Source: Chiloscyllium plagiosum (lineage: Eukaryota). From it: 64,000 nt of DNA. The notes beneath the pieces were generated by a model. It was not told the DNA's origin. It saw nothing but the letters and a program-made list of their open reading frames with translations, and searched no databases. Below, one piece after another: positions 2,576 through 56,024 of this stretch (position 1 is its first letter; each line of letters begins with the position of its first letter). Where the stretch lies: the NCBI RefSeq assembly GCF_004010195.1, contig NC_057719.1, positions 16,042,515-16,106,514 on the forward strand. The letters run 5' to 3'. The position numbers and the translations under genes are program-made.

Positions 2576-4243
2576 TCTGCTAAGTAGCTCTCCCTGGATT
2601 TTCTGATGACCAGATAGTTGTTACTGAACAGTAGACAGGAGTTGTGCATGGAGACCCTACAGAATCTGCAATGTAGCCGGCTTCAAAGGAATTTCCCAGA
2701 GAGTTGAGGATTCTGCTGGGCAATTCCTCCATACCTGAAACCCTCTGAAAGTCTCCATTTAGACTGGAGAATTCAGGTGTTCTGCTGCAGTTACTTAAAC
2801 AATTACTCAGGAAAGTTTATACAATTAAAAGCCTAGCCTAAATTTTGAGTATTTTTTCAACTGACCCCTTCCAACATAATACATACTCACCCCTTACATC
2901 CTTCAGACCCTGAACAACACCCACTGCCCCAGAACCCAACTCTCTTCCCCACTGCTGAACCCAACCCTCCACTTGTCCCCATTTTAAACTTGCCCCCTTC
3001 TACCCCAACAGGATCTTATAGTCCCCAGGACCCTACACATTCCTCCATTCAAGACCCAAAAATGACCCCACTGCACCTCCCAGTCCTCCAGGGAGCAGAC
3101 ACACCACCCCAGGCCCAAACTCACACACTGCACCCACACTACTCCTGCAGGATCTGATATCTCCTACTCAATCCCAGCCTACCCTACGTATACATGACTT
3201 CCTGCTCCCTGCACCCTTGAACCCTGGGACGCCACTCACCTGGCAACCCACTTTTCTTAACCTCTTACCAGCCTGGCACTCTAATTAACTTAGTACCCTA
3301 CTCCTGTAACCACATGGCAACCTATCCTCCCAGCACTTTTCCCTCGCACATATCCTATCATTTACTTAATCTTTCAGAAGGGCTGTTAAAGTGGAACTTT
3401 ATATTTCAGAACACGACAACCAACTGGCGTGAGAAAGTGATTGCACGGTTTTCCTTCCCCCCCCATCCGTTCTGCACTCTGAGAGAAAGGTCAGAATTGA
3501 AAAATGTCTCCGTATTTCCGAAGGAGCCCTGATCACAATTTCCTGTCGGAGATATGGAGCATTTTCTTTCTACAAAAATAAGAAGTGGAGTGGCAAACTA
3601 TGTGACACTGTCACTCCTAATCTTGTTTGATGCTTGGGAATATCACTTCATGTAGATTGGAGAATTCAGGTGTTCTTCTGAAGTTACTTAAACAATTACT
3701 CAGGAAAGCTTATACAATTAAAAGCCTAGGCTGTAGGAATTCCATTATTTTTGAGTAGTAACAGTAATTTTTCCAAAACTTTCCTATGCCACATCGGTCA
3801 GGAAAACCCAGTAATGTAACAGATTGAACCAGGTTAACAGTCCCAGTTAGGGAATTTGTATTCTATGAAGTCTAGCTGGCTAATCTCGTTACAATCACTA
3901 CGTCCCTCCCCCATTGAGTCTGAGAACATAGGTTGGTCTGTTTTCTTGGAGAACCTCTGGGGATGTTTAGCACTGGGTCAGGTTCCTCTGACTCGCATTT
4001 GACATAGGGAGTGTATAATACATGGGAGTTTGCCTCTTATGCCAGGATTGCCTTGGTTGAAATTCAGTCTCTCCCTCTAGCAAAGGTGTCGATGATGCCT
4101 ACATCTATCATGTCCATCTCAGATTCAGAAGTGGCATCAACACTTGATGGAGAGAGTGAACCCATGGGTTCCCGTAGCCTTTCCAACTGTTACGAGGAAT
4201 AGGACATGCTTTGCTGCCGCACTGTTTGCGAGTTTCCGGCTTT

Positions 4244-5437
4244 CATAGAACATAGAAAATAGAACAGTGCAGCACAATACAGGCCCTTCGGCCTTTGATG
4301 TTATACCGTCCTTTCAACCTACTCTAACATCAGACTACCGTACATATCCTTCATTGTACTATCTTCCATCTGCCTATCCAAGAGTCATTTAAATGTCCCT
4401 AATGTATCTGACTTGACTACCACTCCCGGCAGTGCATTCCACGCATTCACCACTCTCGGTGTAAAGAACCTAGCTCTGACATCTCCCCTAAACCTCCCTC
4501 CAATCACCTTAAAATTATGCTCCCTTGTGATAAACATTTCCACCCTGGGAAAAAGCCTTTGACTAACCACCCTATCTATGCCTCTTATCATCTTTTTCAC
4601 TTCTATCAAGTCACCTCTCATCCTTCTTCGCTCCATGCCCTCCAGTCCAGACAGTATCCTGGTAAATCTCCTCCGTACCTTCTCTAAAGCTTCCACATCT
4701 TTCCTATAATGAGGCAACCAGAACTGAACACAATATTCCAAGTGTGGTCTTACCAAGGCTCTTTGGAGCTGCAGCATAACCTCACGGCTCTTAAACTCAA
4801 TTCCCCGCTAATGAAAGCCATCATGTCATATACCTTCTTAACATTGCTATCAACCTGGGTGGCAAATTTGAGAGATCTATGAACATGAACTCCAAGATCC
4901 GTCTGTTCCTCCACACTGCCAAGAACCCTGCCTTTAACCCTGTATTCTGCATTCAAATTTGACCTTCCAATGTGAATAACTTCACACTTTTCCAGGTTGA
5001 ACTCCATCTGCCACTTAACAGCCCAGTTCTGCATCCTGTCAATGGCCTGTTGGAACATAAAACAGCCCTCCACACTATCCACAACTCCACCAACCTTTGT
5101 GTCATCGGCAAACTTACTATCCCACCCTTCCACTTCCTTATCCAAGTCATTTATAAAAATCACAAAGAGTAGAGGTCCTAGAATTGATCCCTGCAGAACA
5201 CCACTGGTCACCAAGCTCCAGGCTGAACACTTTCCATCTACCACCATCCTCTGTCTTCTATGGGCTAGCCAATTCTGTATTCAGACAGCCAGATTTCCCT
5301 GTATGCCATGCCTCCTTACTTTCTGAATGAGCTACCATGGGGAACCTTATCAAATGCCTTGCTCAAATCCATATATACAACATCCACTGCTCTACCTTCA
5401 TCAATGTGTTTTGTCACATCCTCAAAGAATTCAATAA
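4244..5437 (-). mobile_element. 5'-truncated CR1 LINE nested in Gypsy
   Basis: RT motifs SGVLQGSILGPLLFVIFINDL and SKFADDTK, plus RPHLEYCVQFW; TTCTATG-type tail; candidate TSD TTCATA at 4242-4247 and 5438-5443. Confidence 0.92.
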
Positions 5438-7147
5438 TTCATATGGTCCATATGTTTGTTTAGGACCATTGCATCTATCCAAATGCTATACGTCTCTGGT
5501 CCTGACCTCACATCGACTATGTTTCTTAAAGGCCATTTCCATTGTTCTTACATCAGACATCATCCCCTGTATCAAACAGTCTCTCTTGTTTGGCAAAGTC
5601 TTGGGTCTGGCACTGGCATTTCTAATGGTGTTTAATCTTCCCATTCAGGTCTGGGAAGATTACATTTAACCTGGTGCAGAGTGTTCTACCTATTGGTAAC
5701 TAGAGAGATAGCACTGGCAGAGTTGCACATGGCGTGGTCCTAGAATCAAATAAGAACCATGAAATCTTGATTTCTAGTGAGGCTGTCGGTTGCTTCTTCA
5801 AACCAAACGTCAAACTTTGGACTGCTCTTTCTGCCAGGCTATTGGATGTTACAGAGCTGCCTTATATGTTGAATCTCATTCAACTTTAGGAAATACCAAA
5901 ATTCCCTGCTGGCAAACGTTGACCAGTTATCTGTGACCAACACTTCTGGGAGCCCATGTATTGCACACAGTTTTTTTATTGGCATCCCACGTTTGATGAA
6001 TGGACTCTATGCACTTCCAGCCACTTTGAATGGGCATTAACAATGACTAAGAACGTTGAGCCAATGAAAAGACCAGCATAGTCAACATTTCACCAAGTTC
6101 AAGGTTTATCTGGTCATTTCCAAGGATGTGGGGGAAGCTGCTGGCGATAATTTCTGTCCTTGTTGGCACTCTGGGTCCTGCCCCACCTATACAACTATGT
6201 CTATTTTCAATCCTCGCCACCAGACATAACTTCTCACCAGCATTTTCAATTTGGAGACCCCTGGATGACCCTGGTGGAGTTCAGCTGGTATCTGCTGGTG
6301 ACATTGCTCAGGACAATCACTCTTGCTTCCCATAACAATATGCTGTCCCCAATATTGTGCTGGTCTCTCTGGGTCCAAAAAAAGGTTTCAATTCTGGTTG
6401 TGACAGCCCTATAGTTTCCCCTATTACCACCAGTTATTTCAGCTTTGAAAGGGCTAGATCTTTCTGTGTCCAAAGTCTGATATTGTTAGCTGTGACTGGA
6501 AGTGTGTCCAGAAAATGTAAAATATTACAGACTCTTCCATTGATAGTACCATCGGTGGTGTATGCATCTGCATTCACTACTTGGCCTTCTGTACAATGTT
6601 CTAACTTGTATAGTAGGCACTTAGTATGAGAGTCCTCCACTGAATTCAACCTGAAGCTAGGGATTGCACTGTCTTGTCCTCTTTAAGCAGACCTATTAGG
6701 GCTTTGAGGTCCACTATTACCACAAATTTTCATCCATAAAGGTATTAGTGAAACTTCCTGACTGCCAAGCTTTCTTTCTCTATCTATGAGTATTTACACT
6801 CTTCATTAGCCAAAGTACTCGATGCATATGCTACAGGGTGTTCCTCTCAACTGGGCTACCTATGAGCTAATATACCCCAATGCTGTATGGGGAGGCATTG
6901 CAGGTCAATCTCAGATCACGCTTGGGATCATAATGTACCAACACCTTAGAGGATGATAGCAGTTCTTCACTTCACTGCAAGCTATGACTTGGCTACGCAA
7001 CTATTTCCAAGGCTGACCCTTTTTTAAGAAGTTGATACAAAGATGCAGGATGGAGGCCAGGTTATGTATAAATTTTCTGTAATAATTTAACAAGCCAAGA
7101 AATGACCTGAGCTCCTGGATAGGATTGGGAGCCAGGGCTCCCTTCGT

Positions 7148-7850
7148 GTCATAGAGACATGGAGATGTATAGGACAGCAACAGACCCTTTGATCCAACTT
7201 GTCCATGTTGACCAGATATCCTAACCTAATCTAGTCCCATTTGCCAGCACTTGGCCCATATTCCTCTAAACCCTTCCTATTCATATACCCATCTACGTGC
7301 CTTTTAAATGTTGTAATTGTACCAGCCTCCACCACTTCCTCTGGCAGCTCATTCCATAACGCACCACACTATGCCTAAAAACGTTGCCCCTTAGGTCCAT
7401 TTTAACTTTTTCCCCTCTCACCCTAAACCTATGCCCTCTATTTCTGGACTCCCCCACCCCAAGGAAAAGGCTTTGTCTATTTACCAAATCCATGCCCCTC
7501 ATGATCTTATAAACTTCCATAAGCTGTATAAGATCACCACCCAGCCTGTGATGCTGCAGGGAAAACAGCCTCTCTTTCTATAGCTCAACTCCTCCAACCC
7601 TGGCAACATTCATTTAAATCTTTTCAGAACCCTTCCAAATTTCACAACGTCCTTCCAATAGGAAGGAGACCACAATTGCATGCAATATTCCAAAAGTGGC
7701 CTAACCAATGTCCTGTACAGCCATAACATGACCTCCCAACTCTCATATACAATGCTCTGACCAATAAAGGAAAACATACCAAACACCTTCTTCACTATTC
7801 TATCTACCTGCAACTCCACTTTTAAGGAACAATGAACCTGCACTGCAAGA
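7148..7850 (-). mobile_element. 5'-truncated CR1 (HER1-like) LINE
   Basis: C-terminal ORF2 motifs LYRTLVRPLLEYCMQLWSP and EVYKIMRG; CTATGAC tail. Confidence 0.92.
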
Positions 7851-10567
7851 TAGAGTCATAGAGTCATAGAGATGTACAGCATGGAAACAGACCCTTCGGT
7901 CCAACCGTCCATGCTGACCAGATATTCCAACCCAATCTAGCCCCACCTGCCAGCACCCGGCCCATATCCCTCCAAACCCTTCCTATTCATATACCCATCC
8001 AAATGCCTCTTAAATGTTGCAGTTGTACCAGCCTCCACCACATCCTCTGGCAGCTCATTCCATACACGTACCACCCTCTGCGTGAAAAAGTTGCCCCTTA
8101 GGTCTCTTTTATATTTTTCCCCTCTCACTCTAAACTTATGCCCTCTAGTTCTGGACTTCCCAACCCCAGGGAAAAGACTTTCTCTATTTATCCTATCCAT
8201 GCCCCTCATAATTTTGTAAACCTCTATAACCTCAGCCTCCAACGCTCCAGGGAAAACAGCCCCAGCCTGTTCAGCCTCTCCCTGTAGCTCAGATTCTCCA
8301 ACCCTGGCAACATCCTTGTAAATCTTTTCTGAACGCTTTCATGTTTCACAACATCTTTCCGATAGGAAGGAGACCAGAATTGCACGCTATATTCCAACCA
8401 ATGTCCTGTACAGCCGCAACATGAGCTCCCAATTCCTGTACTCAATACTCCGACCAATAGAAGAAAGCATACCAAATGCCTTCTTCACTATCCTATCTAA
8501 CTGCGACTCCACTTTCAAGGAGCTATGAACCTGCACTCCAAGGTCTCTTTGTTCAGCAACACTCTCTAGGACCTTACCATTAAGTATATAAATCCTGCTA
8601 AGATTTGCTTTCCCAAAATGCAGCACCTCACATTTATCTGAATTAAACTTCATCTGCCACTCCTCAGCCCATTGGCCCATCTGATCAAGATCCTGTTATA
8701 CTCTGAGGTAACCTTCTTCGCTGTCCACCATGCCTCCAACTTTGGTGCCATCTGCAAACTTACTTACTATACCTCTTATGCTCACATCCAAATCATTTAT
8801 ATAAATGACGAAAAGTAGTGAACCCAGCACCGATCCTTGTGGCACTCCACTGGTCACAGGCCTCCAGTCTGAAAAACAACCCTCCACCACCACTCTCTGT
8901 CTTCTACCTTTGAGCCAGTTTTGTATCCAAATGGCTAGTTCTCCCTGTATTCTATGAGATCTAACCTTGCTAACTAGTCTCCTATGGGGAACCTTGTCAA
9001 ATGTCTTACTGAAGTCCATATAGATCACATCTACTGCTCTGCCCTCATCAATCCTCTTTGCTACTTCTTCAAAAAACTCAATCAAGTTCATGAGACATGA
9101 TTTCCCATGCACAAAGCCATGCTGACTATCCCTAATCAGTCACTGCCTTTACAAATACATGGAAATTCTGTGGCTCAGGATTCCCTCGAACAACTTGCGC
9201 ACCATCAATACCAGACTCACTGGTCCAAAGTTCCCTGGCTTGTTTTTACCACCTTTCTTAAATAGTGGCATCACGTTAACCAACCTCCAGTCTTCCAGCA
9301 CCTCACCTGTGACTATTGATGATACAAATATCAGGTACACCTGATCAGGTCCTGGGGATTTAACGACTTTTCCGCATTTTAAGACATCCAGCACCTCCTC
9401 CTCTGTAATATGGACATTTTTCAAGATGTCACCATCTATTTCCCCACATTCTATATCTTCCATGCCCTTCTCCACAGTTAACACTATGTAAAATACTCTT
9501 TTAATATCTCCCCCATCTCCTGCGGCTCCACACATAAACTGCCTTCCTCGTGTTTGAGGGACCCTATTCTCTCCCTGGTTACCCTTTTGTCCTTAATGTA
9601 TTTGTAAAAGCTCTCTGGATTATCCTTAACCCTATTTGCCGAAGCTATCTCATGTCCCCTTTTAGTCCTCCTGATTTCCCTCTTAAGTATACTTCTACTG
9701 CCTTTATACTCTAAGGATTCACTCGATCTCTGCTGTCTATACCTGACATATGCTTCCTTGTTTTTCTTAACCAAAACCGCAATTTCTTTAGTCATCCAGA
9801 ATTCCCTACACCTATCAGTCTTTCCTTTCACCCTAATAGGAATATACTGTTTCTGGACTCTCGTTATCTCATTTTTAACGACTTCCCATTTTTCAGCTGT
9901 CCCTTTACCTGTGAACAGGTAATGCTGTAATCACCTGCCCCATCAGCTTTTGTAAGTTCTTGCCGAATACCATCCAATTTAGCCTTCCTCCAATTTAGAA
10001 CTACAACTGTTAGATCTGGTCTATCCTTTTCCATCACTATTTTAAAACTAATAGAATTATGGTCGCTGGCCCGAAAGTGCTCCCCCACTGACACCTCAGT
10101 CACCTGCCCTGCCTTATTTCCCAAGAGTAGTTCAAGTTTTGCACCTTCTCTAGTAGGTACATCCACATACTGAATCAGAAAATGTTCTTGTACACACTTA
10201 ACAAATTCCTGTCCATCTAAACAGTTAACACTATGACAGTCCCAGTCGATATTTGGAAAGTTAAAATCCCCTAACATAACCACCCTATTATTCTTACAGA
10301 TAACTGAAATCTCCTTACAAATTTGGTACTCAATTCCTGCTAACTATTAGGGGGTCGACAATACATTCCCAATAAAGTGATCATCCCTTTCTTATTTTTC
10401 AGTTCCACCTAAATAACTTCACTGGATGTATTCCCAGGAATATCTTCCCTAAGTACAGCAGTATGCTATCCCTTATCAACCACCCACCCCCCACACCCCC
10501 ACCTCCTCTCTTGTGTCCCTTTCTATTCTTCCTATCGCATTTGTATCCTGAAATGTTAAGCTGCCAG
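7851..10567 (-). mobile_element. CR1 (HER1-like) LINE, most of ORF2, disrupted
   Basis: APE motifs GDFNFPNIDW and SDH; RT motifs [26 protein letters not shown]; (CTATGACT)n tail at 7851-7870. Confidence 0.95.
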
Positions 10568-11102
10568 TTGATCGTCTTCATTTTACCTTCTCCAAGTCGG
10601 TCACCTAGTGGACCTGGAACATCTGTTTTTCCCTTCTTAGGCATATGGCTGCCTTGGAAAACATCTGAGGACCGTGTCTAAGTTCTCTAAGTGCTCCTTA
10701 TTAGTCTTCTATGTAATTAGCAGGACACCTAAATAAATTGTGACCTGAGGTAGACCTTGCAAAATATTCTCCATCTTCCGTTAAAAACTTGAGCAGGCTG
10801 ATGATACCCCAAATGGCAGTATCGTATATTTGTACAAGCTCTTATGGATATTAATCGTATCATACCTCCGAGAATCTCATCTAAATGCAAATCCAAGTAA
10901 ATGTGGCTCATGTCTAGCTTTGTGAAGGACAGCCACCCTGCCAGCCCTGCGTATAATCCTCTATCTAAGACATTGGGTACATTTCCAGCTGCAAAAAGTG
11001 GTTTACTGTTTGTTTAAAACACAAAGGCAAACCGAACTGTCAGACTTCAAAATCAGTATGACTGATGCTGCCCATTCTGGAACTTGGGCTGGTTTGATGA
11101 TT

Positions 11103-11495
11103 AGTGAGCTTTGAGAAGATTTGTAGCTGAAGTTGAGGTTCTGGATGTAGGTTTGCTCGCTGAGCTGGAAGGTACATTTCCAGATGTTTCATCACCCTAC
11201 TGGGTAACATCGTCAGTGTGCCTCCGGGCAAAGCACTGCTGATGATTCCTGCTTTCTATTTATATGTTTGGGTTTCTTTGGGTTGGTGATGTCATTTCCT
11301 GTGGTGATGTCATTTCCTGTTCTTTTTCTCAGGGGCTGGTGGATGGGGTCTAACTTGATGAACCTATTGATAGAGTTCCAGTTGGAATGCCATGCTTCTA
11401 GGAATTCTCGTCCATGTTTCTGTTTGGCTTGTCCTAGGATGGATGTGTTGTCCCAGTCAAAGTGGTGTCGAGACACGCACGAGCAACACTACATC
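11103..11495 (-). mobile_element. Penelope-like element 3' fragment (Poseidon-type GIY-YIG C-terminus plus pLTR)
   Basis: HHFDWDNTSILGQAKQKHGREFLEAWHS; homologous to 25295-25785; flanked by CTGGTTT(G/A)ATGATT at 11089-11102 and 11496-11509. Confidence 0.85.
11181..11220 (-). ncRNA. Minimal type-I hammerhead ribozyme motif (CpG-decayed)
   Basis: CA-CTGACGA-T-GTTACCC-AGTA-GGGTGAT-GAAACATC-TG: core intact, 7-bp helix II, ACGT decayed to ACAT. Confidence 0.65.
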
Positions 11496-12502
11496 CTGGT
11501 TTAATGATTCCTTCACTTTCCAGCCTTCTGATTTCTGCCTCTACTTTTGCCCATAAGGCATATGGCATTTGGCAGGTCCTGCAGAATCATGGAATTGCTT
11601 CCTGGTCAACATGCGAGGTGGCCTTGGCTCATATGATAGTTCTTTGACATTACTGTAAAACGTCTGGGTATTTAAATAGGGCTTCACTCAGGCAGCCATT
11701 TTATAATCAAAAAATGTTGACCCAATTCAGAAGAATCTTTCTCAACCAATATCGCCCCATCAAAATTGGGATAAGCCTTTCAGTACAATGACTGGTAAAT
11801 GGGCCTAATTGCCTGGTTCCACACTGTAGAGATTCAATGATCCTATGATTCAATGGTGTAGGTTTTCAGTCTAGCTGAGGTCTTATGCCAACTTTATTGA
11901 AAAAATGTTATTGAAAACTGGTTCTGTCTGACACGGCCGCACCAGTATCGACCTCCATTCTAACCAGGTGACCATTTAACCAGATGATTATTTTGATTGG
12001 TTCTGATTTGGATGTTGCTAAGCAATTTAATGTCATAACCCAGATGCAGGTGGACTTTCTAAGACGTGAGCTATCCTGGATACCGGCCTATGAGCTCTTT
12101 TACTCTCTTTAGATCCAGTAGGATCCATTTGCTGTCTTGAATCCGCATGCTGGGCTTGCCTGCCCAGATCCTGAAGAAAATTTTAACTGTTTGATCGTGA
12201 CTTGGCTTTGTTTTGGGATTTTGCTGTGGGCCAACCTAGAGTCCCTCCAATCAGGAAATGCCTTAATTGAGTCTATGCAATCGGTGTTTTCCAGCTCAGT
12301 CAGACTGGCAAGACTGTCCACTTCCAACGGAATGCCCTGTAACTCATGTGCTCCACTTACCACGTTCTCCAATAATAAAGCAAGCTGTAATGCCTGTTTG
12401 AAGTCCAGTTGGGCTAACGAGTAGGCGTTTTGCATGGTTATGTCATTAATCCCATATATCAGCCAGTCTCTAAGCATCTCATTAAGGGATAAGCCAAAGT
12501 CG

Positions 12503-12951
12503 TGCCTGCCCCTCTTCCGCGGTTATGTTAGAGCCCGGGTGTCCTTGGAGAAGGAGCACGCGGTGTCGACCAACACCCTGGAGTTGTTCAGGAAGAGGTG
12601 GGCGCCGCAGGGAGTGGAGTGCATCATTTCTCCCTCCAATTCTATTTTGATTTTGTCCCTACCCTCCCCTTCACTGTTTTGATCACACAGCACTGCCCTT
12701 TGATGTGAAGGGCAGTGTTTGTCACTGGCCACCCGGGTGTTTTTCTATCTTCCTGGTGGTGGAAATTGAATAAAGATTGGTGCACTTTGTGTCTTTCACT
12801 GTGTCTCACACCTGCACACACACACCATGGGTGCTGGGGATAAAATAAGCACTACCGCACTTAGGTGGTAGTGTGGGGGTTAAAAAAGAAAGGGGAAAGG
12901 AAAAAAAAAAAAAAAATCCCCCCCCCGTCTCACTAGAAAAAAGAAAAAAAA
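12503..12951 (+). mobile_element. Short Tx1-clade LINE 3' copy with TSD and short 3' transduction
   Basis: ORF2 C-terminus CLPLFRGYVRARVSLEKEHAVST...; 3' UTR; two A-tails separated by TCCCCCCCCCGTCTCACTAG; TSD AAGCCAAAGTCG at 12491-12502 and 12952-12963. Confidence 0.9.
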
Positions 12952-13416
12952 AAGCCAAAGTCGCACATGCCTCTGCCAGTCGTCTTAACCCAGTCATAAA
13001 TCCCGACACTGATTTCCCAATCCTTGAACTGCCGAGTAAAACAACAGTGTCTCAGAATTAAAGGAGGCTTAGGGTTGGAATATTCTTTAACTAAATCTGT
13101 CAAGTTTTGAAAGGTGCTCATTGCTTGTCATCTGCACTAATTCATTTGCCCAGACAAAATAGTGCATTCTTCCCACATACTGGGCCCAATCTTCAATGGC
13201 AAGGTTGAATGAGTTAAGCTTCCTGAATAGTAGCATGATGCAAGAAATGCTTACCCCAACTCAAAGGCAAATGTTGCAAGCGAGTTTCTTCTGGAACATG
13301 CTTTACTCTTGTTGCCACTGAAATGACTCCACAGAAGCCAGTATCCCATCACCAAGCCACCATTTATTTTCACTTGTAAAGTTCTTGACTCTGGCACAGC
13401 CTCTTCAGAGTCAGAA

Positions 13417-13730
13417 TCTTAGAGTCCTTACCGAGTGGAAACATGCCCTTCGGCCCAACAAGCCCACACTGACCCTCCGAAGAGTATCCCACCCAAACCC
13501 ATTTCCCAACTTTTACCCCTGACTAATTCACCTAACCTACACATCTCTGAACACCACGGGCAATTTAGCATGGCCAATTCACCTAACCTGCACATCTTTG
13601 AATTGTGGGAGGAAACCCACACAGACATGGGAAAATGTGCAAACTCCAAACAGACAGTTGCCTGAGGCTGGAATCGAACCTGAGTCCCTGGCACTGTGAG
13701 GCAGCAGTGCTAACCACTGAGCCACCGTGC
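13417..13730 (-). mobile_element. HE1-type SINE in the Gypsy 5' LTR
   Basis: A and B boxes plus core; TSD AGTCAGAA at 13409-13416 and 13731-13738. Confidence 0.9.
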
Positions 13731-13769
13731 AGTCAGAACCCCAGAGTATCAGAATCTCTGACACTTCTC

Positions 13770-14188
13770 TTTTTTTTTTCCTTTTTCATTTTTTCTTCTT
13801 TTTTAATTTAACCCCCACACTACCACCTAAGTGCGGTAGTGCTTATTTTTTCCCCCAGCACCCATGGTGTGTGTGTGCAGGTGTGAGACACAGTGAAAGA
13901 CACAAAGTGCACGAATCTTTATTCAAATTCCACCACCAGAAAGATAGGAAAATACCCGGGTGTCCAGTGACAAACACTGCCCTTCACATCAAAGGGCAGT
14001 GCTGTGTGATCAAAACAGTGAAGGGGAGGGTAGGGACTAAATCAAAATAGAGTTGGAGGGGGAAATAATGCACTCCACTCCCTGCGGCGCCCACCTTTCC
14101 CTGAACAACTCCAGGGTGTTGGTCGACACCGCGTGCTCCTTCTCCAAGGACACCCGGGCTCTAACGTAACCGCGGAAGAGGGGCAGGC
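13770..14188 (-). mobile_element. Short Tx1 3' copy A in the Gypsy LTR
   Basis: Homologous to 12503-12900; flanked by GACACTTCTC at 13760-13769 and 14189-14198. Confidence 0.9.
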
Positions 14189-14198
14189 GACACTTCTC

Positions 14199-14704
14199 TT
14201 TTTTTTTTTCGGCCCTAATGACCCTCTCCACGGCTCGCTGCCTGGACCTTCTCCTGTTTATATTTTTTTTCTCCTGTTTATATTTTTTTTTTCTCCTGTT
14301 TATTTTTTATTTTTATTTTTTTCTTTCAGTTTCCACCACCAGGAAGATAGGAAAACACCCGGGTGGCCTGCTCCTGTTTATTTATTTATTTATTTATTTT
14401 TCCTCTTTTTAATAATTTAACCCCCACACTACCACCTAAGTGCGGTAGTTCTCCTGTTTATATTTTTTTTTTCTCTCTTTTTCTTTTTTTTTATAATTTA
14501 ACCCCCACACTACCACCTAAGTGCAGTAGTACAGTGGAGGGGAGGGTAGGGACTAAATCAAAATAGAATTGGAGGGAGAAATGATGCACTCCACTCCCTG
14601 CGGCGCCCACCTCTCCCTGAACAACTCCAGGGTGTTGGTCGACACCGCGTGCTCCTTCTCCAAGGACACCCGGGCTCTAACGTAACCGCGGAAGAGGGGC
14701 AGGC
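14199..14704 (-). mobile_element. Short Tx1 3' copy B with composite tail array
   Basis: Same 5' end as copy A, internal UTR deletion near 14530, flanked by GACACTTCTC (14189-14198, 14705-14714); the tail holds five CTCCTGTTTA repeats. Confidence 0.88.
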
Positions 14705-14802
14705 GACACTTCTCTTTTTATCTGGTCAGCCAGGACTCCTTATTGGACCAGATTAACAGCCCCAGTCAGGGAACTCAGTTAAAAAACCATGGATATCCAG
14801 CT

Positions 14803-14948
14803 GACATAGAGTCGTAGAGATGTACAGCATAGAAACAGACCCTTCGGTCCAACCCGTCCATGCCGATCAGGTATTCCAACTCAATCTAGTCCCACCTGCC
14901 AGCACCCGGCCAATATCTGTCCAAACCCTTCCTATTCATATATTCATC
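14803..14948 (-). mobile_element. CR1 3' tail
   Basis: Near-identical to 7857-8000. Confidence 0.85.
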
Positions 14949-15485
14949 TTTCCAATCACTATCGACTGACCCACAAAGTGCCTCTCAGGTAACTCTTTGA
15001 ACAGATAAAGTCAGTCAGTTATGTTGTAATTAATCTCAACTTGGTCTTTAAGATATTTTGGAAAATCTCAGCTCAATTTTTGAGTAATCCAACAGATATT
15101 GGTAAATGCAATAACACCAGTACTTATAGTATTGGAAAATGAATCAATATTCTGGGTTTCTTTGAATGTGTCAGCTGTTCAGCTGGATATAGAGCAATGA
15201 ATGGAAGATCTGTAGCAAGGTTCCCAAAATAATTGTGTGCCATTAGCACTCCTCAAAAATGAATCAGATCTCTGATACCCACATCAAGAACACACAATGA
15301 AATTTATAGCTTTTATAGTTATTGTCATTGGACTTATGCTTTGAAAATTGATTTAGTTTGATAGTTTTGTGGCATTTTAATCCTGTTTGTTATATTACAA
15401 AACAGAGTCTATGTTACAACTGAGAATGATATCAATCGGGGGAAAAAAGCAAAGGCAAAAGCAAAAGCAGAACTTGCAGAAGACC

Positions 15486-15620
15486 CTAAAGATGGGTCAC
15501 TGGACCCCTAACATTAACTCTGCTTTCTCTCCACAGATGCTGCCAAACTTGCTGAGTTTTTTTCCAGCAATTTCTGTTGTTGTTTTAGATTTCCAGCATT
15601 TGTAGTTCTTTGTTTCTTTT
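15486..15620 (+). mobile_element. Degenerate PLE-derived short repeat
   Basis: GGGTCACTGGACCC helix-II remnant, then AACATTAACTCTG...CACAGATGCTGCC; homologous to 56869-56966. Confidence 0.55.
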
Positions 15621-15626
15621 GACAGA

Positions 15627-15895
15627 GTCAATAGAATCCCTACCATGTGGAAAGAGGCCACGCAGTCCCTCAGGTCTGCACCAGCAATAAAACAGCATCC
15701 CAGCTAGACCCAGACCCTCATTCTACCCCTGTAACCCTGCATTTATCATGGCTAATCCACCTAGGCTGCACACCTTTGGACCGTGGGAGGAAAACAGAGC
15801 ACCTGGAGGAAATCCATGCAGGCATGAGAGAACGTGCAAACGCCTCACAGACCCAGGGCTGGAATTGAACCTGGGTCCCCATGAGGCAGCAGTGC
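15627..15895 (-). mobile_element. HE1-type SINE (diverged)
   Basis: B box GGTTCAATTCC and core remnants. Confidence 0.75.
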
Positions 15896-16611
15896 GTCCT
15901 ATACTCACTATGTAGTGAGCTACCGAGAATAGAGTGAGAAAACCTGTGAGAGAAACTCTCGTTGAGAAACTCTCACTTGCCAAATTCTGGTAACGTTCAG
16001 TCCTCTGTTAGGTTTAGAGGCAAAGTTCCTACAACTGAGTAATACCTCCGCTGAAAGCCATGTTTTCAGTAAACAGTTAGGAAATGAAATATAAATATTG
16101 ATTTAATTAAAAGTGCAATCATGGGCGATTTACTCTTGTTATTTTTTTCTCAGCGTTAATGTGTTCCAATAACTTTAAGTATCCAAACCATTTCAACAGA
16201 CCGAAAAGTTCGCATTGAAATCCGTTCACCAACAACAATCAGTTGAAGGATAATCATTACTTAAAAAGAAAGATTCAGAATCCAAGGAGCTGCGTAACTT
16301 CAAACCATATGTGATCCTGCTTAATTAAAGTGGAAGAAAAGGCCTTGATCTGCTGTTTGTTTTGGTCACAGTGGGGTGGGATTAATTCTCAGAAGTTCAA
16401 TAGAAATCTTGCACAGCTGTTACACCTTTGGACAGCAGTGTCGAACAAAGAAGCCCTGATGATACTACAGAAGGTAATGGCTGCTGGCCATTTACAGAGT
16501 GAAACATTCTTTCTCATCTAGTCCCTGAAATAGTTAGGAGATTTCAGCTGCTCAGCTTTTGTAGCAAAATCACAGACCTCTGTATTGAGAACATCTATGC
16601 CTGTTAGAACA

Positions 16612-16785
16612 GGAAGAAAGACTTGTATGTCTTCAGTTCCTTTCTTGATCTCTGGAAGTTCCAGAGTGCTTTACAGCCAACTAAGATCTGTTGAAGTGTA
16701 ATTGATGGTGTAATAATGGCAAGAAAGCAACTGTTTCCAGGTAACAATGTGATAATAACCATTTATGGTGATGTTGGTTGGCCAG
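16612..16785 (-). mobile_element. Deu-type SINE 3' part (L2-like tail)
   Basis: Reverse complement of the motif TTGGCTGTAAAGCACT...GAAAGG...ATACAAGTCTTTCTT, shared with 32330-32500 and 45795-45975. Confidence 0.55.
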
Positions 16786-18264
16786 AGTCATAGAATAGAA
16801 TCGTGGCATCACAGAAGAAACCATTTGAGTTGTTGTGTCTTTCCTGGCCCTGTGATGGAGCAGTTCTCATACTGTCATTCTTCCACCCTCTCCCTATATT
16901 CCTATTGCTGCCCTGCGTCAAAGTATCCACCTCACTTCTCTGAAATGAAATGTAGGGCTGAATCTCAGGGTTTTTTGGCTATGTGCGAGTCATATAGAGT
17001 TTAGTGATGTGATTCAACCCATGAAGTCTTCATATTTCTTACCAAACTCACCTCAACAATGGACATTTCAGCCCTGATAGCAAGTATCATGTCTGATGAC
17101 TACCCCATCCTAATACACACTACTCATCAAGCAACACGCTACTCACCAGAGAATTGACGAGCACCATCTTTAAAGCCGGTTGTGCACCCGGACAAGTTCT
17201 GCCAGTCCAGACGTGCCCTGCACCTTTCCTGACATTTGCCCCAGAGGGATGGCCAGCATTGTAGGATGGAGGTTAATGTCCTTCCCCACTCTGCCACCAT
17301 CTTCTCTCCAATACCTTGCACTCATTCTATCTCTGCTACTGCATTCGTCACCCACCGAGGCTCATGCTGTATATGTTTCAGGCAATAGCGAGACATTTCC
17401 CTCACTCGCTCCTACCCACTCCAACCACCAGCTGCACTAACCTGCATGCCCTCTGAGCTGTCGACCCTCTTGTTCGGAAAGCCTACACCAACAATAATAG
17501 AAGAAATTTGGTGGTTGCGCAGCTATCATAAAATATGCCTCTCTCGTCCAGGAGCAAACAGCCTACAATAGAACAAAAATAGACAACAGGTAGCATTGTG
17601 CCTGTCATTTAGCTCCTCCCCACTTATCAGCAGAGGATCCTAACTCGAACTGCTCTGAGCAGAGTCTGACCTGGTATTGGAGACTGGCCTTCACTGTACT
17701 GGGACCCACTGAATGAAGGTAATTAACCTTAACTGGACTGATGCCTGCTGAGAACCATGGCAAGCTCCCCAGCTTTGTGTCTGACCTAAATAGCGCAGGA
17801 AAATAGTAATATGAACCCGGTATCTCTAGCTTTGGAGGCAATGCACAAAATGGTATGGCAAGGCAATGCACAGAAGGGATGCTCTGAGCTTCGAGTAAAT
17901 TTCACAGCATTTGTGCACTTCAGCAGTGAGCAGAGATACAAGAAAGCAAAATACTGTGGATGCTGGAAATCTGAAACAAACACAGAAAATATTTCAGTTC
18001 TGAAGGAGAGTCGACCTGCTGAGTTTCTCCAGCATTCTCCGAGTTTGTTAGTCCAGAGTTGCAGCCTGGTCCAGTCCATGAGCTTGTTGCATGTCCATCA
18101 ACGCATAGTGTTCTTGCTGCAGCATAACAATGATTGTTGCCTGTGGCTCAGCATTGACATGCCGAAGTGTGCTGGATCAGAGATGAGCAATGATGGTTTA
18201 TAGAGTCTGGCAAGTGTCAAATGCCAATGTCCAGGGTGTATGTGTCTGGTGCCTATGGAGATAA

Positions 18265-18725
18265 AGTCATAGAGCCATAGAGACATACAGCATGGAAACA
18301 GACCCTTTGGTCCAACTCGTCTATGCTGACCAGAAATCCTAAATTAATCTAGTCCCATTTGCCAGTTCCTGGCCCATATCCCTCTAAACTCTTCCTATTC
18401 ATAAACCCATCCAGATGCCTTTCAACTGTAATTGTACCAGCCTCCATCACTTCCTCTGGCATCTCATTACATACAAACACCACCCTCTGCATGAAAAAGT
18501 TGCCCCTTAGGTCCCTTTTAAATTTTTGCCCTCTCATCCTAAAACTATGCCCTCTAGTTCTGGACTCCCCCTCCCCACAGAAAAGGCCTTGTCTATTTAC
18601 CCTATCCATGCCCCTCATGATTTTATAAATCTCTATAAGGTCACCCCACAGCCTCCAACGCTCCAGGGAAGACAGCTTCAGGCTATTCAACCTCTCCCTG
18701 TAGCTCAAATACCCCAAATCTAGCA
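18265..18725 (-). mobile_element. CR1 3' fragment
   Basis: LSYRERLN...GDLIEIYKIMRG...GNFFMQRVV and CR1 tail. Confidence 0.92.
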
Positions 18726-19015
18726 TACTCACAGGGTGATAAGATTTCACCCATAATTTCTTTTACAGCTAATATCTATGCTGCACAATTACACTTGATC
18801 TTGAAATTCCAAAAAAGAAGTCTCCTGGTACATTTTTGTTCAAGTTCTGTTTTCTAATTTATAATCCAAAAAGAAAAAAAAAATGTAAATGTTCCTTATG
18901 TACGAATTGCTAGATTTAAATGTGAGATCTGAAATGTAGTGAAATGGATGGTAACTGCCTGATAGAATCTTTCAGCTCTACGTATCTGTGATCAAAACAC
19001 ATCAGCTGCGACCTC

Positions 19016-19150
19016 ACTAAAATGACTCCACAGAGGCTGGTATCCTATCACCAAATCACCCTTTACTTACAAATGGAAAGTCTTTGACACTGGTCCAGCT
19101 CCCTCAGAGCCAGCTCTCAGATTCAACAGAACCTTTGACGTTCCTGTTTA
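19016..19150 (-). mobile_element. Gypsy LTR fragment (same family as 13319-14962)
   Basis: AAATGACTCCACAGAGGCTGGTATCCTATCACCAA... aligns to 13321-13410 and 13751-13770. Confidence 0.8.
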
Positions 19151-19200
19151 TTTTTTTGTCTCCAGGAGTGTCAGAGAGAACAGAACCTCTGACATGCCTG

Positions 19201-22200
19201 TTTTTTTTTGACCCTCCTGTTTGTTTTTTTTTCTCCTTTTCCCCACACTACCACCTAACCGCGGTAGTGCTTATATTTCCCCCAGCCCCCATGTTGTGTG
19301 TGTGCAGGTGTGAGACACAGTGAGAGACACAAGGTGTATGAATCATTATTCGGTTTCCACCACCAGGAAGAAAGGAAACACCCGAGTGGCCAGTGACAAG
19401 CACTGCCCTTCACAAAAGGGCAATGCTGTGTGATCAAACAGTGAAGGAGGGCAGGGATTAAATCAAAATAGAATTGGAAGGGGCCAGTTTATGGCCAGGC
19501 CCAAGAGCAGACCCATGAGGAGGTCTTCAGACCTGCCCTCCCTCCTCTGTACCGGGTGCCCGACGATCAGGAGCATGGGACTGAAGTGCAACTAAAAGCA
19601 GAGGAGATTTTTAAGAAAATCAAAAGGGAGTGCAAACGCCCACACCCAATATATACGTGGTCCACGGACTCCACAGAACAAGCAGTTGGGCTGGGAGTCC
19701 GTGAACTACCACAATCTGCGGTTGCAGGGGACCGCTACATGCAGCACCTTCCACCCCAGATCCCTGAGAGAAAGGGGGAGGACTCCCACGTAGAGAGCCC
19801 TCCACTGGGGATCCCCACCGCCCGGTGGCAAATGGACCCACCGAGGCGTGTCCGGTTGGTGGATGAGGGACAAGCGGTGGATGGTGTGCAGCAGCAGTCT
19901 ATACAGGGCCCACTTTATGTCCATAAAAAGGGACAAAATTAAAATTCCGGAGGCAGCTCAGGTTGTGGGGCACAGGCTCCCGTGGAAAGTACAGGACCTT
20001 GGGGCCAATGTGAAATTCCGTGCGGGCTGGGGTGAGTGCGGACAGGATCCCACCGCACACCCAAGCATCCAACTGGTGCACTACGTCGGGTCCGAGCACC
20101 GCCGTTTTAAGGTGTTGGATGGTGGTGGCCACGCTGCGGCAGCGTCCAGCCCAGGCCCCCGGCACCCAGCACGTCCCCGACCCTGGCCCCCCCCGCCGCC
20201 ACGGCCCTCCCCCCCGACAGCCACTCGAACCCGCGAGTACGGAGGTGCGGATTCCTGAGCAACGGCTCCCTGACGACAGCCGCTACTCCAGCCGGAGGGT
20301 AGGCGCGACGCGATTCGACCATGTTCCAGACAGTGATCAGGTCCTGGTAAAAGACAGGCAGCGTCTTGACGACGACCTCCAAACGGTCGACGAACAGGAG
20401 CTGCGTGTCGTAGTTGAGGTTACGCACCTGGCAGAAAAAATACGTCGCCAGGGCGCACCACCTAGGAGGAGGCTCGACGTAAAGGTATCGCCGCAAGGTC
20501 TGAAGGCGGAACGTCGCGACCTGGGTGCGGGCGCACACCAGCGACTGACCGCCCTCCTCAATAGGGAGACTCAGAGCCTGCGCGGCGACCCAGTGCATCT
20601 TTTTGTCCCATCGACCAACGTTCTCTGGATGTCAGCGACAAAGCCAGGAGGAGGGACCAAAGTGACCAGCCGGTACCACAGCATGGCGCCCACCAGCTGG
20701 TTTATAACCAGCACTGACACTCTGCGGCGGCGTACAAAAGTCGGATCCGGGCGACGAACTGCGCCCCGAACCCGAATGCCCGCAGAGTCCCGAGCAGGTA
20801 CTCGTGATCGACCCTGTCGGACGCCTTCTCCTGGTCGAGAGACAGGAAGGCGCTCGGCAGACCAGCCCGTCGACAGAAATGGATCAGGTCCCGGACCAGG
20901 TGGACGTTATCGTGTATCCTCCGGCCCGGGACCGTGTAGGACTGGTCCGGGTGGATCATGTGGGCCAGCACGGAGGCCAGGCGAGAGGACAACACCCTGG
21001 CGAAGATTTTGTAATCCGTGCCGAGGAGGGAGACCGGACGCCAGTTCTTTAAGGAACGAAGGTCCCCCTTCTTTGGCAGCAGGATGATGACCGCCCTGTG
21101 CCAAGAAAGGGGCAGCAGTCCGGCATTTAGGCACTCCCCCAGGACCTGTGCGTAGTCGCTCCCCAGGACGTCCCAGAACGCCCTGAAGAACTCCACAGTC
21201 AGCCCGTCCAGCCCCGGGGTTTTGCCCCTCGAGAGCCGGTCGAGGGCGCCGGTCAGCTCCTCCAAAGTGACGGGAGCGTCGAGCCTTCCGGCGTCCTCCG
21301 GGCTGAGCTGCGGCAGGTCCTCCCACAGAACTCTGCGAGCATCCTCGCTGGACGGATCCGGAGAGAACAGGGCTGTGTAATAGTTTCGGACGTGGGCCCT
21401 GACGCCCTCCGGGTCCGAGACGAGGGACCCGTCGTCGGCCAGCAGCACAAGGAGCTGCTGGCGGGTGCCACGCCTTTTTTCCAGCGAGTAGAAGAAGGGG
21501 GAGCCGCGGTCCAGGTCCTGGAGGAGCTGGATCCGCGGCCTCACGTACGCGCCCCGAGCCCCGACGAGCTGCAGGTCCCGGAGCGCGGCCTTCTTCTCTT
21601 CGTACGCCCCGCGCAGGGCCGGGTCCGCGTCGGGCTGACCGAGGCGTGAATCCAGGTCGAGCATCTCCCTCTCCAACTCCCCGATCCTGGATTTCCGCCT
21701 CTTCGTCGACCCCCTCGCGTACTCCTGACAGAAGACGCGGACGTGAGCCTTGCCCATGTCCCACCATAGCCTCAGGGAGGGGAAGCTTCCCCCCTTCCTT
21801 CTCCAGCTGGCCCAGAAACGACGAAACGAGTCCCGGAACCGCTCGTCCTCCAGCAGCAGGTTGTTAAAGTGCCAGTACGCGGAGCCGAGCCTGGCGCCGA
21901 ACAGGAGTTCCATCCACACCAGGTGGTGGTCCGTGCAGGACACCTGCCACGTGGAGGCCTTCGGAAAACAGGAGGCGTACGCCCGCGAAATGTACAGGCG
22001 GTCGATTCTGGACGCTCCGACCCCAGGCCTCACGAAGGTGAAGGCGATGGAGTCGGGATGGAGATTCCGCCAGACGTCCACCAGGTCGAAGGACTTGACC
22101 AAGTCCCCCAACCTCTTCCCCGACGCCCAGTCAGTGCGGGCACCGCCGTGGTCCCTGCCCTCGAGGACACAGTTAAAATCTCCCGAGGATGACGCACTGG

Positions 22201-24195
22201 TTCTTGTCAATGGAGGCGAGATGAGCGGACACTTCTTCAAAGAAGCTCGCTTGCCTCGGCCCGGCCAGGGGAGCATAGACTTTCACCAAGTGAAGCACCG
22301 CGCCCCCCAGCCGAACCGTCAGGTGAAGCAAACGGCCTGGCACTGGCTCCCTGACCCCCAAGATCTCCGGCTGAAAATGCAGGGCCAACAAGATAGCCAC
22401 CCCGCCAGATCTGCGGGTGAGGTGACTCATGTAAACTCCCCCTCGCCACTCCAGGAGCCAGGTGGCTTCGTCTCCCGGGGTAGTGTGGGTTTCTTGCAGG
22501 AAGCACACCGCATACCACCCGTCCCGAAGGACCGAGAGGGTCTGGAATCTGCGCTGTTACTCCTTGCTGCCATTGATGTTGAGGCAGGCTATAGTTGTCT
22601 CCATGTCAGAAGCGTTGTGCAACCACCACCAGTACAGTTAAAAACCTATATACATATTTACAGGGAGGACAAGGGAGGGGCACAGATGTCCCTCGCCCTC
22701 ACCAGGAGCGCCCCCAGGAAGTTCCTGACTCGCTTTCGCTCATTGACATCGAGCCCAGGCGCCTGGTGAGCAGCGTGGGCCGAACAGTAAACTCTCTCGA
22801 AGGAGCTCCAGCGGTCGAGCGCCAGTTGGGCTCTATCACGGCGACTCCGAGTTTTCTCGACAAACTCCTAGAGTTCCTCGAGGGGGATGGGGGGAGATCA
22901 GTGGGCGGCACCTGGGATTCAAAAATGTCACTGCAGACAGAGTCCACGTCGTCCCTGGTGTCCACCACCGATCCCGAACCCTCCTCAAGGAGGTCGCCCT
23001 CGGTCACCGACCCCTCCCCCACCAAGAGGATGGGTGCTGGTCCGGCGCCGCCAACCGGCCTCAAACCCCCGGCGACCCCACCCCCAGGGTCACCGGCGGT
23101 ACCTTCCTCGGTGCACCCCTTCCCGGAACACCCCGAGTTCAGCTCATCGGGCAGCAGAGGCTCGGGGCCCCGCTCCTCTCCCGACACCGGGACGCCCGGC
23201 TCCTCAGGAAAAATGTCCTCCCCCAGGTCCAGGGCCCCCGGGAAAACAGTCTGGGAGGGAGGAGCGAAGATAACGCCTTCCGCCCCTCCGCCACTCGACG
23301 ACCCAGCAGAGGGTCCTCCGTTGTTGCCGACACCATGGCCCGTGTGGTTATTAAAGTCCTCCCCAGGGGCCGGAGGAGTTGAGGCAGCAGGAGGCCCTGC
23401 TGTAGCCCCTGGGGGTTTGGGTAGGTCGGGCCACGGTGCCGGACAATGAAGAGGCATCATTAGCTCATCCGCTGAAGAGGGGCAGCACCACGAGCGCGCT
23501 GCTGGAGTATCTCTCCCCTCCAAGGGCCAGTGCCTCTTTCCCAGAGGGACAGGGGGGAATTTATGGGCCTTCCCCTCCCCGCCCGCCTTGGTGGTCATGG
23601 GGCCCGAGGTCCCTCCCCCCAGCCTTTCCCGGAATACGATTGGCTGGGGGAAGACAGGGGGCGTGGCCAGGGTGGGGAGGGTCAGGTGTGTCACTTCCTG
23701 CCCCGCCCCTGGTTTATCAGGTGATGGCGGGCGGGGCAGGGGCCCAGTTCCCTCTCTGGGGCCCAGAGACACGGTCGCTGGAGGAGGTAGGGCAGCGGTG
23801 GTTCCCCCCAGGTTAGTGCTAGGGTGCGGCTGGGTGGGATGGGACGGGACGGGACGGGGCGGGGCGGGGCGGAGCTCAGGGGTCCCCGGGCCAGGCGTTG
23901 CTCTATCGGGGTGGGTGTGGGGTCAGTGGGGCCGGGGTCAGTGCGGCCAGGATCAGGTATGGGTTTCGGGGTCAGGGTTCCCGCGCCAGGGCGACGCTGG
24001 CACAGCCGCAGGGGCATTGTCGTGCCGGGGTGGGGTAGGTCGTGGGCTAGGTGTCGGGGAAGGGAATAGGGTGGTCTCCCCGTGGGCGGGCCTGACATGC
24101 CGCGCCTTCTGGCCAGCCGGACGCTCACCCCCCTCCCTGCCAGAGGCTGGAGCATTGGAAGCCTCCGGTGCCGGGGCTTGTGGTGTTGACTTTGG
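19201..24195 (-). mobile_element. Long Tx1-clade LINE (ORF1 3' part, APE-RT ORF2, 3' UTR), defective
   Basis: ORF2 ATG at 22604 (METTIACLNING), CFLQETH, GDFNCVL, SRIDRLY, TDHH, KTPGLDGL, KNWRPVSLLGTDYKI, SLDQEKA; C-terminal Cys/His region near 19700-19620. Contains an early stop, frameshifts and deletions. The 5' end falls in the gap. Confidence 0.93.
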
Positions 24196-24619
24196 NNNNN
24201 NNNNNNNNNNNNNNNNNNNNNNNNNNNNNNNNNNNNNNNNNNNNNNNNNNNNNNNNNNNNNNNNNNNNNNNNNNNNNNNNNNNNNNNNNNNNNNNNNNNN
24301 NNNNNNNNNNNNNNNNNNNNNNNNNNNNNNNNNNNNNNNNNNNNNNNNNNNNNNNNNNNNNNNNNNNNNNNNNNNNNNNNNNNNNNNNNNNNNNNNNNNN
24401 NNNNNNNNNNNNNNNNNNNNNNNNNNNNNNNNNNNNNNNNNNNNNNNNNNNNNNNNNNNNNNNNNNNNNNNNNNNNNNNNNNNNNNNNNNNNNNNNNNNN
24501 NNNNNNNNNNNNNNNNNNNNNNNNNNNNNNNNNNNNNNNNNNNNNNNNNNNNNNNNNNNNNNNNNNNNNNNNNNNNNNNNNNNNNNNNNNNNNNNNNNNN
24601 NNNNNNNNNNNNNNNNNNN
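24196..24619. other. Assembly gap
   Basis: Run of N. Confidence 1.
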
Positions 24620-24915
24620 GTGAGCCTTGCCCACGTCCCACCATAGCCTCAGGGAGGGGAAGCTTCCCCGCTTCCTTCTCCAGCCGGCCCAGAAACAACG
24701 AAACGAGTCCCGGAACCGCTCGTCCTCCAGCAGCAGGTTGTTAAAGTGCCAGTACGCGGAGCCGAGCCTGGCGCCGAACAGGAGTTCCATCCACACCAGG
24801 TGATGGTCCGTGCAGGACACCTGCCACGTGGAGGCCTTCGGAAAACAGGAGGCGTACGCCCGCGAAATGTACAGGCGGTCGATTCTGGACGCTCCGACCC
24901 CAGGCCTCACGAAGG
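24620..24915 (-). mobile_element. Second Tx1 ORF2 segment, 5'-truncated
   Basis: Matches 21743-22038 with about 5 substitutions. Confidence 0.9.
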
Positions 24916-55619: not shown

Positions 55620-56024
55620 ACTGGCCATTAACAGGTCCAGGCAGCGGCCCGTGGAGGGGGTTGTTAGGGCCAACTGCCTGCCCCTCTTCCCCGTTTACAT
55701 TAGGGCCCGGGTGTCCTTGGAGAAGGAGCACGCGGATTCCACCAACACCCTGGAGTTGTTCAGGGAGAGGTGGGCGCCACAGGGAGTGGAGTGCATTATT
55801 TCCCCTGCCAACTCTATTTTGATTTAATCCCTGCCCTCCCCTTCACTGTTTGATCACACAGCATTGCCCTTTGTGAAGGGCACTGCTTGTCACTGGCCAC
55901 TCGGGTGTTTTCCTATCTTCCTGGTGGTGGAAATTGAATAAAGATTCGTACACCTTGTGTCTCTCACTGTGTCTCACACCTGCACACAGACAACATGGGT
56001 GTTGGGGGATAAATGAAAAAAAAA
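55620..56024 (+). mobile_element. 5'-truncated Tx1 3' copy
   Basis: LAINRSRQRPVEGVVRANCLPLF...; TSD ATACAATGTCAGG at 55607-55619 and 56025-56037. Confidence 0.9.

Follow-up and report, generated by a model that had tools for sequence, protein, structure and literature searches.

The Tx1 clade of long interspersed nuclear elements (LINEs) includes families that insert into one kind of target. The present work concerns a family of this clade in Chiloscyllium plagiosum and its insertion into the long terminal repeat (LTR) of a Ty3/Gypsy retrotransposon, as seen in a 64,000-nucleotide stretch of contig NC_057719.1 (positions 16,042,515 to 16,106,514 of the forward strand; the window) and across the genome. 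Mutsu, a Tx1-clade element, targets 5S ribosomal DNA (rDNA). Other target-specific members are Keno (U2 small nuclear RNA) and Kibi/Koshi (microsatellites) (PMC4494074). Set apart by description, Keno, Kibi/Koshi and Mutsu have host genes or simple repeats as their targets, unlike the LTR used here. Closer in kind are Tx1-8_Crp and Tx1-4_AMi, two Tx1 families of crocodilians with a preference for LTR retrotransposons (Kojima 2015, PMC4494074). An earlier note on the window, made from the sequence alone, had presented such a pairing as not known to be described in sharks; insertion of Tx1 into LTR retrotransposons was, however, already in print for crocodilians. Compared by description only, the main text of that paper gives no LTR type, coordinate or link to a TATA box for the two families, and it describes no shared 5′ breaks, polarity or LTR-derived heads.

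Two further systems are instructive. Like the present family, Tx1L of Xenopus laevis targets one site in another transposon, but its target is the piggyBac-type DNA transposon Tx1D instead of an LTR promoter. R1, which inserts into the 28S rDNA of Drosophila, is likewise a site-specific LINE with an endonuclease of the apurinic/apyrimidinic (APE) type and a 14-bp target duplication, and its tandem arrays also build up as new copies enter the duplication on the 5′ side of a resident copy (PMC2718515). Target sequence carried on the 5′ end of the R1 RNA anneals to the site (Stage and Eickbush 2009, PMC2718515). R1 differs in its clade and target and in that its captured sequence lies upstream of the site, whereas here it lies downstream; inherited truncation points are not described for R1 in the accessible text of that paper. 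At the level of abstracts, a scope without subscription journals and Repbase Reports, neither a description of the present family nor one of inherited or identical truncation points was found. Homing of Tx1 elements into other transposons, LTR elements included, is a known class, which limits the surprise; the parts of most interest to a specialist are the TATA site, the LTR-derived heads and the inherited breaks.

The preferred reading, which is given a probability of about 0.7, is that a Tx1-clade LINE family has the TATA box of an old Ty3/Gypsy LTR as its target, that it inserts there repeatedly, independently and in the sense orientation, and that it likely uses the promoter of this LTR. 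The genomic copies directly display one site and one orientation, duplications of 8–15 nt, independence of the insertions, polarised arrays with shared breaks, LTR-derived heads and targets carried in tails. They make a clear example, present in many copies, of a transposon that parasitises another transposon's promoter; among the best-conserved LTRs about one in eight has an interrupted TATA box, and among older LTRs the share is larger. The hundreds of natural junctions bear on 5′ joining and truncation points in APE-type LINEs. Site-directed gene insertion is a further reason for interest, since this is a vertebrate LINE of the APE type whose target is defined and dispensable.

The TATA-box site and the Tx1 copies of the window

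Genome-wide, the insertion site is GATA/TAAACAGGAG (the slash marks the cut), entered in the sense orientation in the TATA box of a Ty3/Gypsy LTR of about 270 bp. The CCAAT, TATA and initiator (Inr) motifs named here are textbook patterns. In the LTR sense, the cut in the window is GATA/TAAACAGGAGTGTC, within the TATA box and 28 nt past the CCAAT box; the earlier note, whose description is accurate but follows the antisense strand, had placed the insertions exactly at a TGAC motif, about 14 nt from the real cut. An Inr-like motif lies exactly 29 nt beyond the T of the TATA box in 15 of 24 empty LTRs. The features of the window that bear on the site are as follows, where ORF, UTR and RT stand for open reading frame, untranslated region and reverse transcriptase.

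14705–14805, minus strand: U3 half of the Gypsy 5′ LTR, with a CCAAT box at 14742–14746 and a TATA-like GATAAAA at 14716–14722
Between 14719 and 14718: cut site in that 5′ LTR; the 5′ copy of the 14-nt target duplication is at 14705–14718
14203–14704, minus strand: promoter-side Tx1 unit, sharing its 5′ break with the unit behind and having an internal deletion and a composite tail
14189–14202, minus strand: middle copy of the target duplication, local variant AAAAGAGAAGTGTC
13774–14188, minus strand: resident 5′-truncated Tx1 unit, with the end of ORF2, the 3′ UTR and an A-rich tail
13319–13773, minus strand: R/U5 half of the same LTR, beginning with the 3′ target copy 13760–13773 and ending ...TTTCA at 13319
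11000–13318, minus strand: primer-binding site and decayed gag/protease internal region of the Gypsy element, matching the internal region of loci L301 and L302
19018–19151, minus strand: downstream half of a second LTR, opening with TAAACAGGAAC at the cut site
19152–19240, minus strand: composite tail of the long Tx1, with A tracts and two carried LTR target pieces
19241–24196, minus strand: long broken Tx1, with part of ORF1 and with ORF2 from the ATG at 22604 (APE endonuclease, RT)
12503–12951, plus strand: off-site Tx1 copy, antisense in the Gypsy internal region, with duplication AAGCCAAAGTCG at 12491 and 12952
55620–56025, plus strand: off-site Tx1 copy, with duplication TACAATGTCAGG at 55608 and 56026 and, like the LTR, with CCAAT 29 nt upstream of the cut

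Both LTR copies that retain the site carry Tx1 insertions in the LTR sense, with junctions at 13760–14718 and at 19151/19152, as the earlier note had said. In the first, GACACTTCTC recurs at 13760, 14189 and 14705 and encloses two minus-strand Tx1 units (13774–14188 and 14203–14704), and the LTR halves on either side join into a single LTR that is followed by the primer-binding site and Gypsy internal sequence. The two tandem copies between three repeats were thus rightly recognised, but the duplication measures 14 nt (14705–14718) and not 10. In the second, poly(A) meets TAAACAGGAAC at 19151/19152, which agrees with the tail start proposed earlier, and the orientation is that of the tandem units. 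The further motif variants that had been noticed in the tails are also there: five canonical target copies (CTCCTGTTTA) stand at 14251–14460 in the tail of the unit at 14203–14704, and partial copies stand at 19197 and 19215 in that of the long Tx1. The five canonical copies differ from the local site variant and were therefore brought in with the RNA. The long copy is damaged by a stop near the start of ORF2 and by deletions of about 500 bp (20715/20716) and about 175 bp (19482/19483), and its 5′ LTR half is not visible because its 5′ end falls in the N gap at 24197–24619. The off-site copy at 12503 sits in the internal region of the same Gypsy element whose LTR holds the tandem units.

By its sequence, the element is a Tx1-clade LINE family, as had been proposed. 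An uninterrupted 880-residue stretch of ORF2 from locus L225 contains APE and RT domains (PF03372 and PF00078 were matched in L225/L230, and zf-RVT weakly in L205). It is 50% identical to Xenopus Tx1L (YTX2_XENLA), its best named match, over 99% of the query (E 3e-268), while the match to human L1 ORF2 is far weaker (E 4e-59). A quick tree of 22 rows without an L1 outgroup, 20 of them picked by length and name from 120 listed matches, groups it with Tx1L and with turtle and sturgeon proteins (Shimodaira–Hasegawa-like approximate likelihood ratio support 86, or 100 with one further row). Poly(A) tails, 5′ truncation and target duplications, the marks of target-primed reverse transcription, are present in the Tx1 loci. 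ORF1-like frames are visible; in the broken copies searched they gave no Pfam match, such as one to a zinc knuckle.

The host element, as represented by L301 and L302, has two direct TG..CA LTRs 4.0–4.3 kb apart, a primer-binding site and a polypurine tract. With stops read as X, its domains are PF00078, PF17919/PF17917, PF17921 and a weak PF13683, in that order, and the succession RT, RNase H and integrase is the Ty3/Gypsy order. The domain search of L301/L302 gave no match to env, and space for env is also absent. The U3 region contains an inverted CCAAT pair (CTGATTGG...CCAATCAG), seen in the window at 14728–14770 and in the empty LTRs L091–L110, and there are reads with strand-switch joints at this pair.

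Site preference across the genome

Three DNA searches with different Tx1 pieces yielded 90 loci, the best matches of 178, 2195 and 1700 candidates. Removal of 3 copies from the window and of 3 duplicates left 84 independent loci, whose flanks were curated by hand: 47 lie on the LTR site, 31 elsewhere and 1 in a related LTR-like repeat, and 5 are undecided. The on-site fraction is 33/63 for loci with a resolved 5′ flank and 47/78 for those with either flank. Kojima (2015) regards a family as target-specific when more than 20% of flanks fall in one sequence type, a share that is exceeded here. An unbiased sample of 75 stretches at round coordinates (718 kb) contains 5 LTRs, about 0.19% of its DNA with an upper bound of 0.44%, so that the on-site excess is at least 119-fold over insertion anywhere in an LTR. 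The idea that the LTR is a preferred target is borne out by this enrichment, the absence of which the earlier note had regarded as refuting it. Specificity is a strong preference that covers about half of the loci; that it is not absolute, as had been remarked, is seen in the window from the copies at 12503 and 55620, each with its own duplication.

The position and orientation are narrow. In 28 of 34 automatic assignments the 5′ junction falls at LTR coordinate 113–120, and with the site at 105 this gives duplications of 8–15 nt. None of the 34 contains a true antisense on-site insertion; one weak match of that kind was false. Approached from the LTR side, 4 of the 5 LTRs in the 718-kb sample have an insertion at the site (3 of this Tx1 family and 1 of a diverged relative). 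A perfect 25-mer occurs in 1,024 LTRs; in 4 of the first 30 of these this family is present, and its 5′ end differs in all 4. In a reciprocal check, Tx1 was found upstream in 18 of 20 places fetched from 42 with A7 followed by the target.

Locus L057 (900–1000) has an insertion in a related repeat with the same CAAT...A/TAACC layout, perhaps a diverged LTR family. At L026 a Tx1 piece lies within a tandem repeat of about 1.1–1.3 kb whose flanks are identical, as in the amplification of a satellite. At L310 (7845–8100) the LTR site described above is occupied by a third Tx1-like 3′ UTR, a diverged one, which suggests that older families also used this site.

Heads, tails and arrays of the inserted copies

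Of 31 long copies fetched, 9 are truncated or gapped, and all 22 that reach the 5′ head have LTR R sequence there. In 6 the head is a continuation of the site of 60–75 nt; in the other 16 it is a remnant behind a piece of Tx1 3′ UTR, and the end of this piece hardly varies in position. A second set was selected with the head core (35 of 40 listed matches), a query that itself includes about 12 LTR-like letters. All 35 of these loci have LTR-derived heads, 24 of the first kind, 10 of the second and 1 with a deletion joint. Heads share host-specific LTR variants in L223, L206 and L227, and that of L226 comes from an LTR subfamily other than its host's. The off-site copy L396 has a head that starts at the predicted initiator. 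Locus L205 is off-site, yet it has a 280-nt leader of Tx1 3′ sequence, from which it follows that such leaders travel in RNA. A TART-like terminal repeat at the 5′ end had been considered and was replaced by captured leaders after the heads were compared.

These LTR-derived heads are consistent with transcription from the LTR promoter through everything between the start and the body, and judged from the copies themselves Tx1 likely borrows that promoter. The same kind of promoter dependence was proposed by Kojima for SINEU, and SINEU-3 forms tandems (PMC4494074). RNA reads cover both U3 and R, from many LTR copies and with no pile-up at a start, although one run contributed none, and the joint between R and the head is spanned by 3–4 RNA reads and one low-depth contig. 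The Tx1 3′ piece is partly present in runs of four other organisms; of these, run X2, compared with another locus, gave one low-depth contig across the R-head joint.

At the opposite end, a strict count finds a copy of the target in the tail of 12 of 31 off-site loci. As a control, 6 of 86 A-tract windows contain a target copy, and 3 of these 6 are Tx1 loci. The poly(A) joined to TAAAC spells AATAAA at the 3′ junction.

Arrays are the other conspicuous product. Of 150 pairs of adjacent units, 60, distributed over 39 of 64 arrays, have starts no more than 2 nt apart, against a between-locus rate of 1.4%. Each unit is preceded by its locus's own site variant, and growth takes place at the promoter side of the resident. 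The units are not duplicates of one another: in just 2 of 51 testable pairs is the neighbour a unit's closest copy, and the first unit is younger than the last in 48 of 66 arrays (p=3e-4). Rare variants of the resident recur in the newcomer at 5/20 in the first 15 nt and at 22/284 beyond 120 nt. At L239:4290–4620 (L127), an 11-nt Tx1 piece with poly(A) is preceded by a 165-nt duplication that comprises LTR and unique flank. Newcomers thus likely complete their integration on the resident copy. On the simplest reading, the fresh cDNA would pair with top-strand DNA of homology or microhomology on the downstream side of the nick and copy back from there; annealing to downstream homology is also what the shared breaks suggest.

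Off-site loci L048, L010, L051 and L029 were struck twice or more, with shared breaks, which means that re-use of a site needs no LTR. The off-site copy at 12503, 1.3 kb away, has its 5′ break within 1 nt of those of the array units at 14188 and 14704; 4 of 132 loci start in that 4-nt region, so this coincidence is possibly due to chance. Starts are scattered genome-wide, which ruled out a non-autonomous element whose 5′ end is fixed at 12503/14188/14704.

A non-coding, A-tailed passenger of 1.57 kb is found at the same LTR site, alone or inside Tx1 arrays. Its head resembles a second LTR subfamily, and it forms arrays of its own, also with shared 5′ breaks.

L289:166–1735, L279, L292 and L288: examples of the passenger, with internal tandem repeats and an LTR-derived head

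At L240:4300–4881 (L125) a non-Tx1 sequence with a DNA-transposon-like terminus and an A tract is joined exactly to the target; it is possibly an RNA moved in trans.

Proposed insertion mechanism, rival explanations and further features

Insertion would proceed as follows. The APE endonuclease would nick the bottom strand at the T/AAA step, and a CCAAT about 28 nt upstream, together with target sequence at the RNA 3′ end, probably raises the strike rate. Reverse transcription would begin at the nick. The end of the new cDNA would then likely anneal to homologous top-strand DNA downstream of the nick and copy back, with LTR R sequence as the template for full-length heads and resident Tx1 for later truncated copies; annealing on the resident would explain both the landing at the promoter side and the inherited 5′ break. 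A full-length copy would end behind an intact CCAAT-TATA-Inr arrangement and be transcribed from the LTR start. The AATAAA of the junction likely permits a short run of the transcript into the target before polyadenylation, and by this read-through target pieces would travel along.

What directs the nick to the LTR is a separate matter. Off-site cuts begin with TAA in 19 of 24 cases; this step resembles that of L1 and is much too frequent in DNA to account for the preference for the LTR. In a small sample anchored by hand, 5 of the 32 off-site cuts from the two families together have CCAAT 26–29 nt upstream, against a background of 1.3% (p=7e-5), and the window copy at 55620 is one of these 5. 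The endonuclease may read the site, target RNA carried along may pair with the nicked strand, and the promoter may tether the element; all three may contribute. A bolder proposal, which is tentative, is that the LINE lacks a promoter and that a host factor bound about 28 bp upstream guides it to CCAAT-TATA promoters (NF-Y-like tethering). The LINE would reconstitute the captured LTR promoter through annealing of its LTR-derived head downstream of the nick, and it would write polarised, time-ordered arrays with inherited 5′ breaks. If this proposal is true, the arrays would be a natural record of 5′ truncation points set by homology-driven second-strand joining.

Several observations weigh against repeated insertion at the TATA box with use of the LTR promoter, or against parts of it. 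About 40–50% of Tx1 loci are off the LTR, the samples consist of best BLAST matches and are skewed to young copies and arrays, and occupancy of the site differs between samples (4/5 versus 4/30). With respect to the promoter, the presumed start is marked by only one off-site head, the head of L226 extends further upstream than the predicted start, and an internal promoter could lie in the 5′ UTR, which is long and rich in GC. Carried tail pieces range from 7 to 66 nt after AATAAA, with only 25 of 42 within 10–35, and CCAAT is missing at the distance given above from 27 of 32 off-site cuts. In the arrays, the start is not common to 90 of the 150 adjacent pairs, the age order is reversed in 18 of 66, and the variant gradient depends on 20 variants in the first bin.

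An unlikely competitor holds that the endonuclease alone does the targeting by reading a site of 15–25 bp, as that of Tx1L does, and that promoter capture is incidental to an element with its own internal promoter. The Tx1L endonuclease nicks its genomic target nearly exclusively in vitro (PMC1950540), the ORF2 here is 50% identical to that of Tx1L, and single truncated copies without LTR homology at the 5′ end occur at the site (e.g., L014, L040 and L044). However, heavily mutated sites are still struck at the same coordinate (AAAAGAGAAGTGTC in the window, GAACAAGAA in L234), CCAAT is in excess at off-site cuts, every resolved head is LTR-derived, and the DNA-contacting hairpin, with 8 residues, is 3 shorter than the 11-residue hairpin of Tx1L. 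Quite improbable is the proposal that arrays arise by tandem duplication at the DNA level, through unequal crossing-over between the duplications, or by re-insertion of a locus's own transcript. It predicts the shared 5′ break and the shared local site variant, it can point to 11 of 51 neighbours in the top 5% of matches, and unequal exchange has been invoked for R1 arrays (PMC5932611). Duplication at the DNA level was rejected because the neighbour is so rarely the best match (in 16 of the 51 pairs it is below the median), because units of one array differ in age class and tail, and because of the age polarity.

The two remaining accounts dispense with recognition or with repeated insertion. 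That LTRs are merely tolerated as open chromatin while insertions elsewhere are purged is very improbable. Off-site copies are common and LTR promoters may be open in the germ line, but within the LTR there is a single coordinate and a single orientation, the excess noted above is measured against insertion anywhere in an LTR, and purging at such a scale is implausible in a 3.6-Gb genome. Precision to the nucleotide refutes this account unless a positioned protein sets the site, in which case it becomes part of the best explanation. Hitch-hiking, in which a single ancestral Tx1 insertion was amplified with the LTR, has next to no chance of being correct. This was the other circumstance that the earlier note had named as fatal to its proposal, and apart from the shared coordinate nothing favours it. 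The first units of 132 loci have 114 different 5′ starts, which excludes amplification together with the LTR; most conserved LTRs are empty, as are both LTRs of the two-LTR copies L301 and L302; and locus-specific site variants that arose after the LTR had inserted are duplicated on both sides of the insertions.

The window contains further features around these elements.

24620–24915, minus strand: second copy of the ORF2 endonuclease/linker region, 296 bp, 98% identical to 21743–22038
About 13420–13734: SINE-like repeat (short interspersed nuclear element) splitting the R/U5 half of the 5′ LTR, by the author's reading and without a database match
3822–3904, minus strand: third LTR piece, preceded by a polypurine tract and stopping just past CCAAT, without the site and without Tx1

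The repeat at 24620–24915, which lies beyond the N gap, represents either a second long unit or an assembly artefact. Other LINE fragments with RT matches occur in the window at 4639–5435, 7147–10022 and 50555–52776, and we take these to be CR1-like. A SINE-like family with many copies is also represented in the window.

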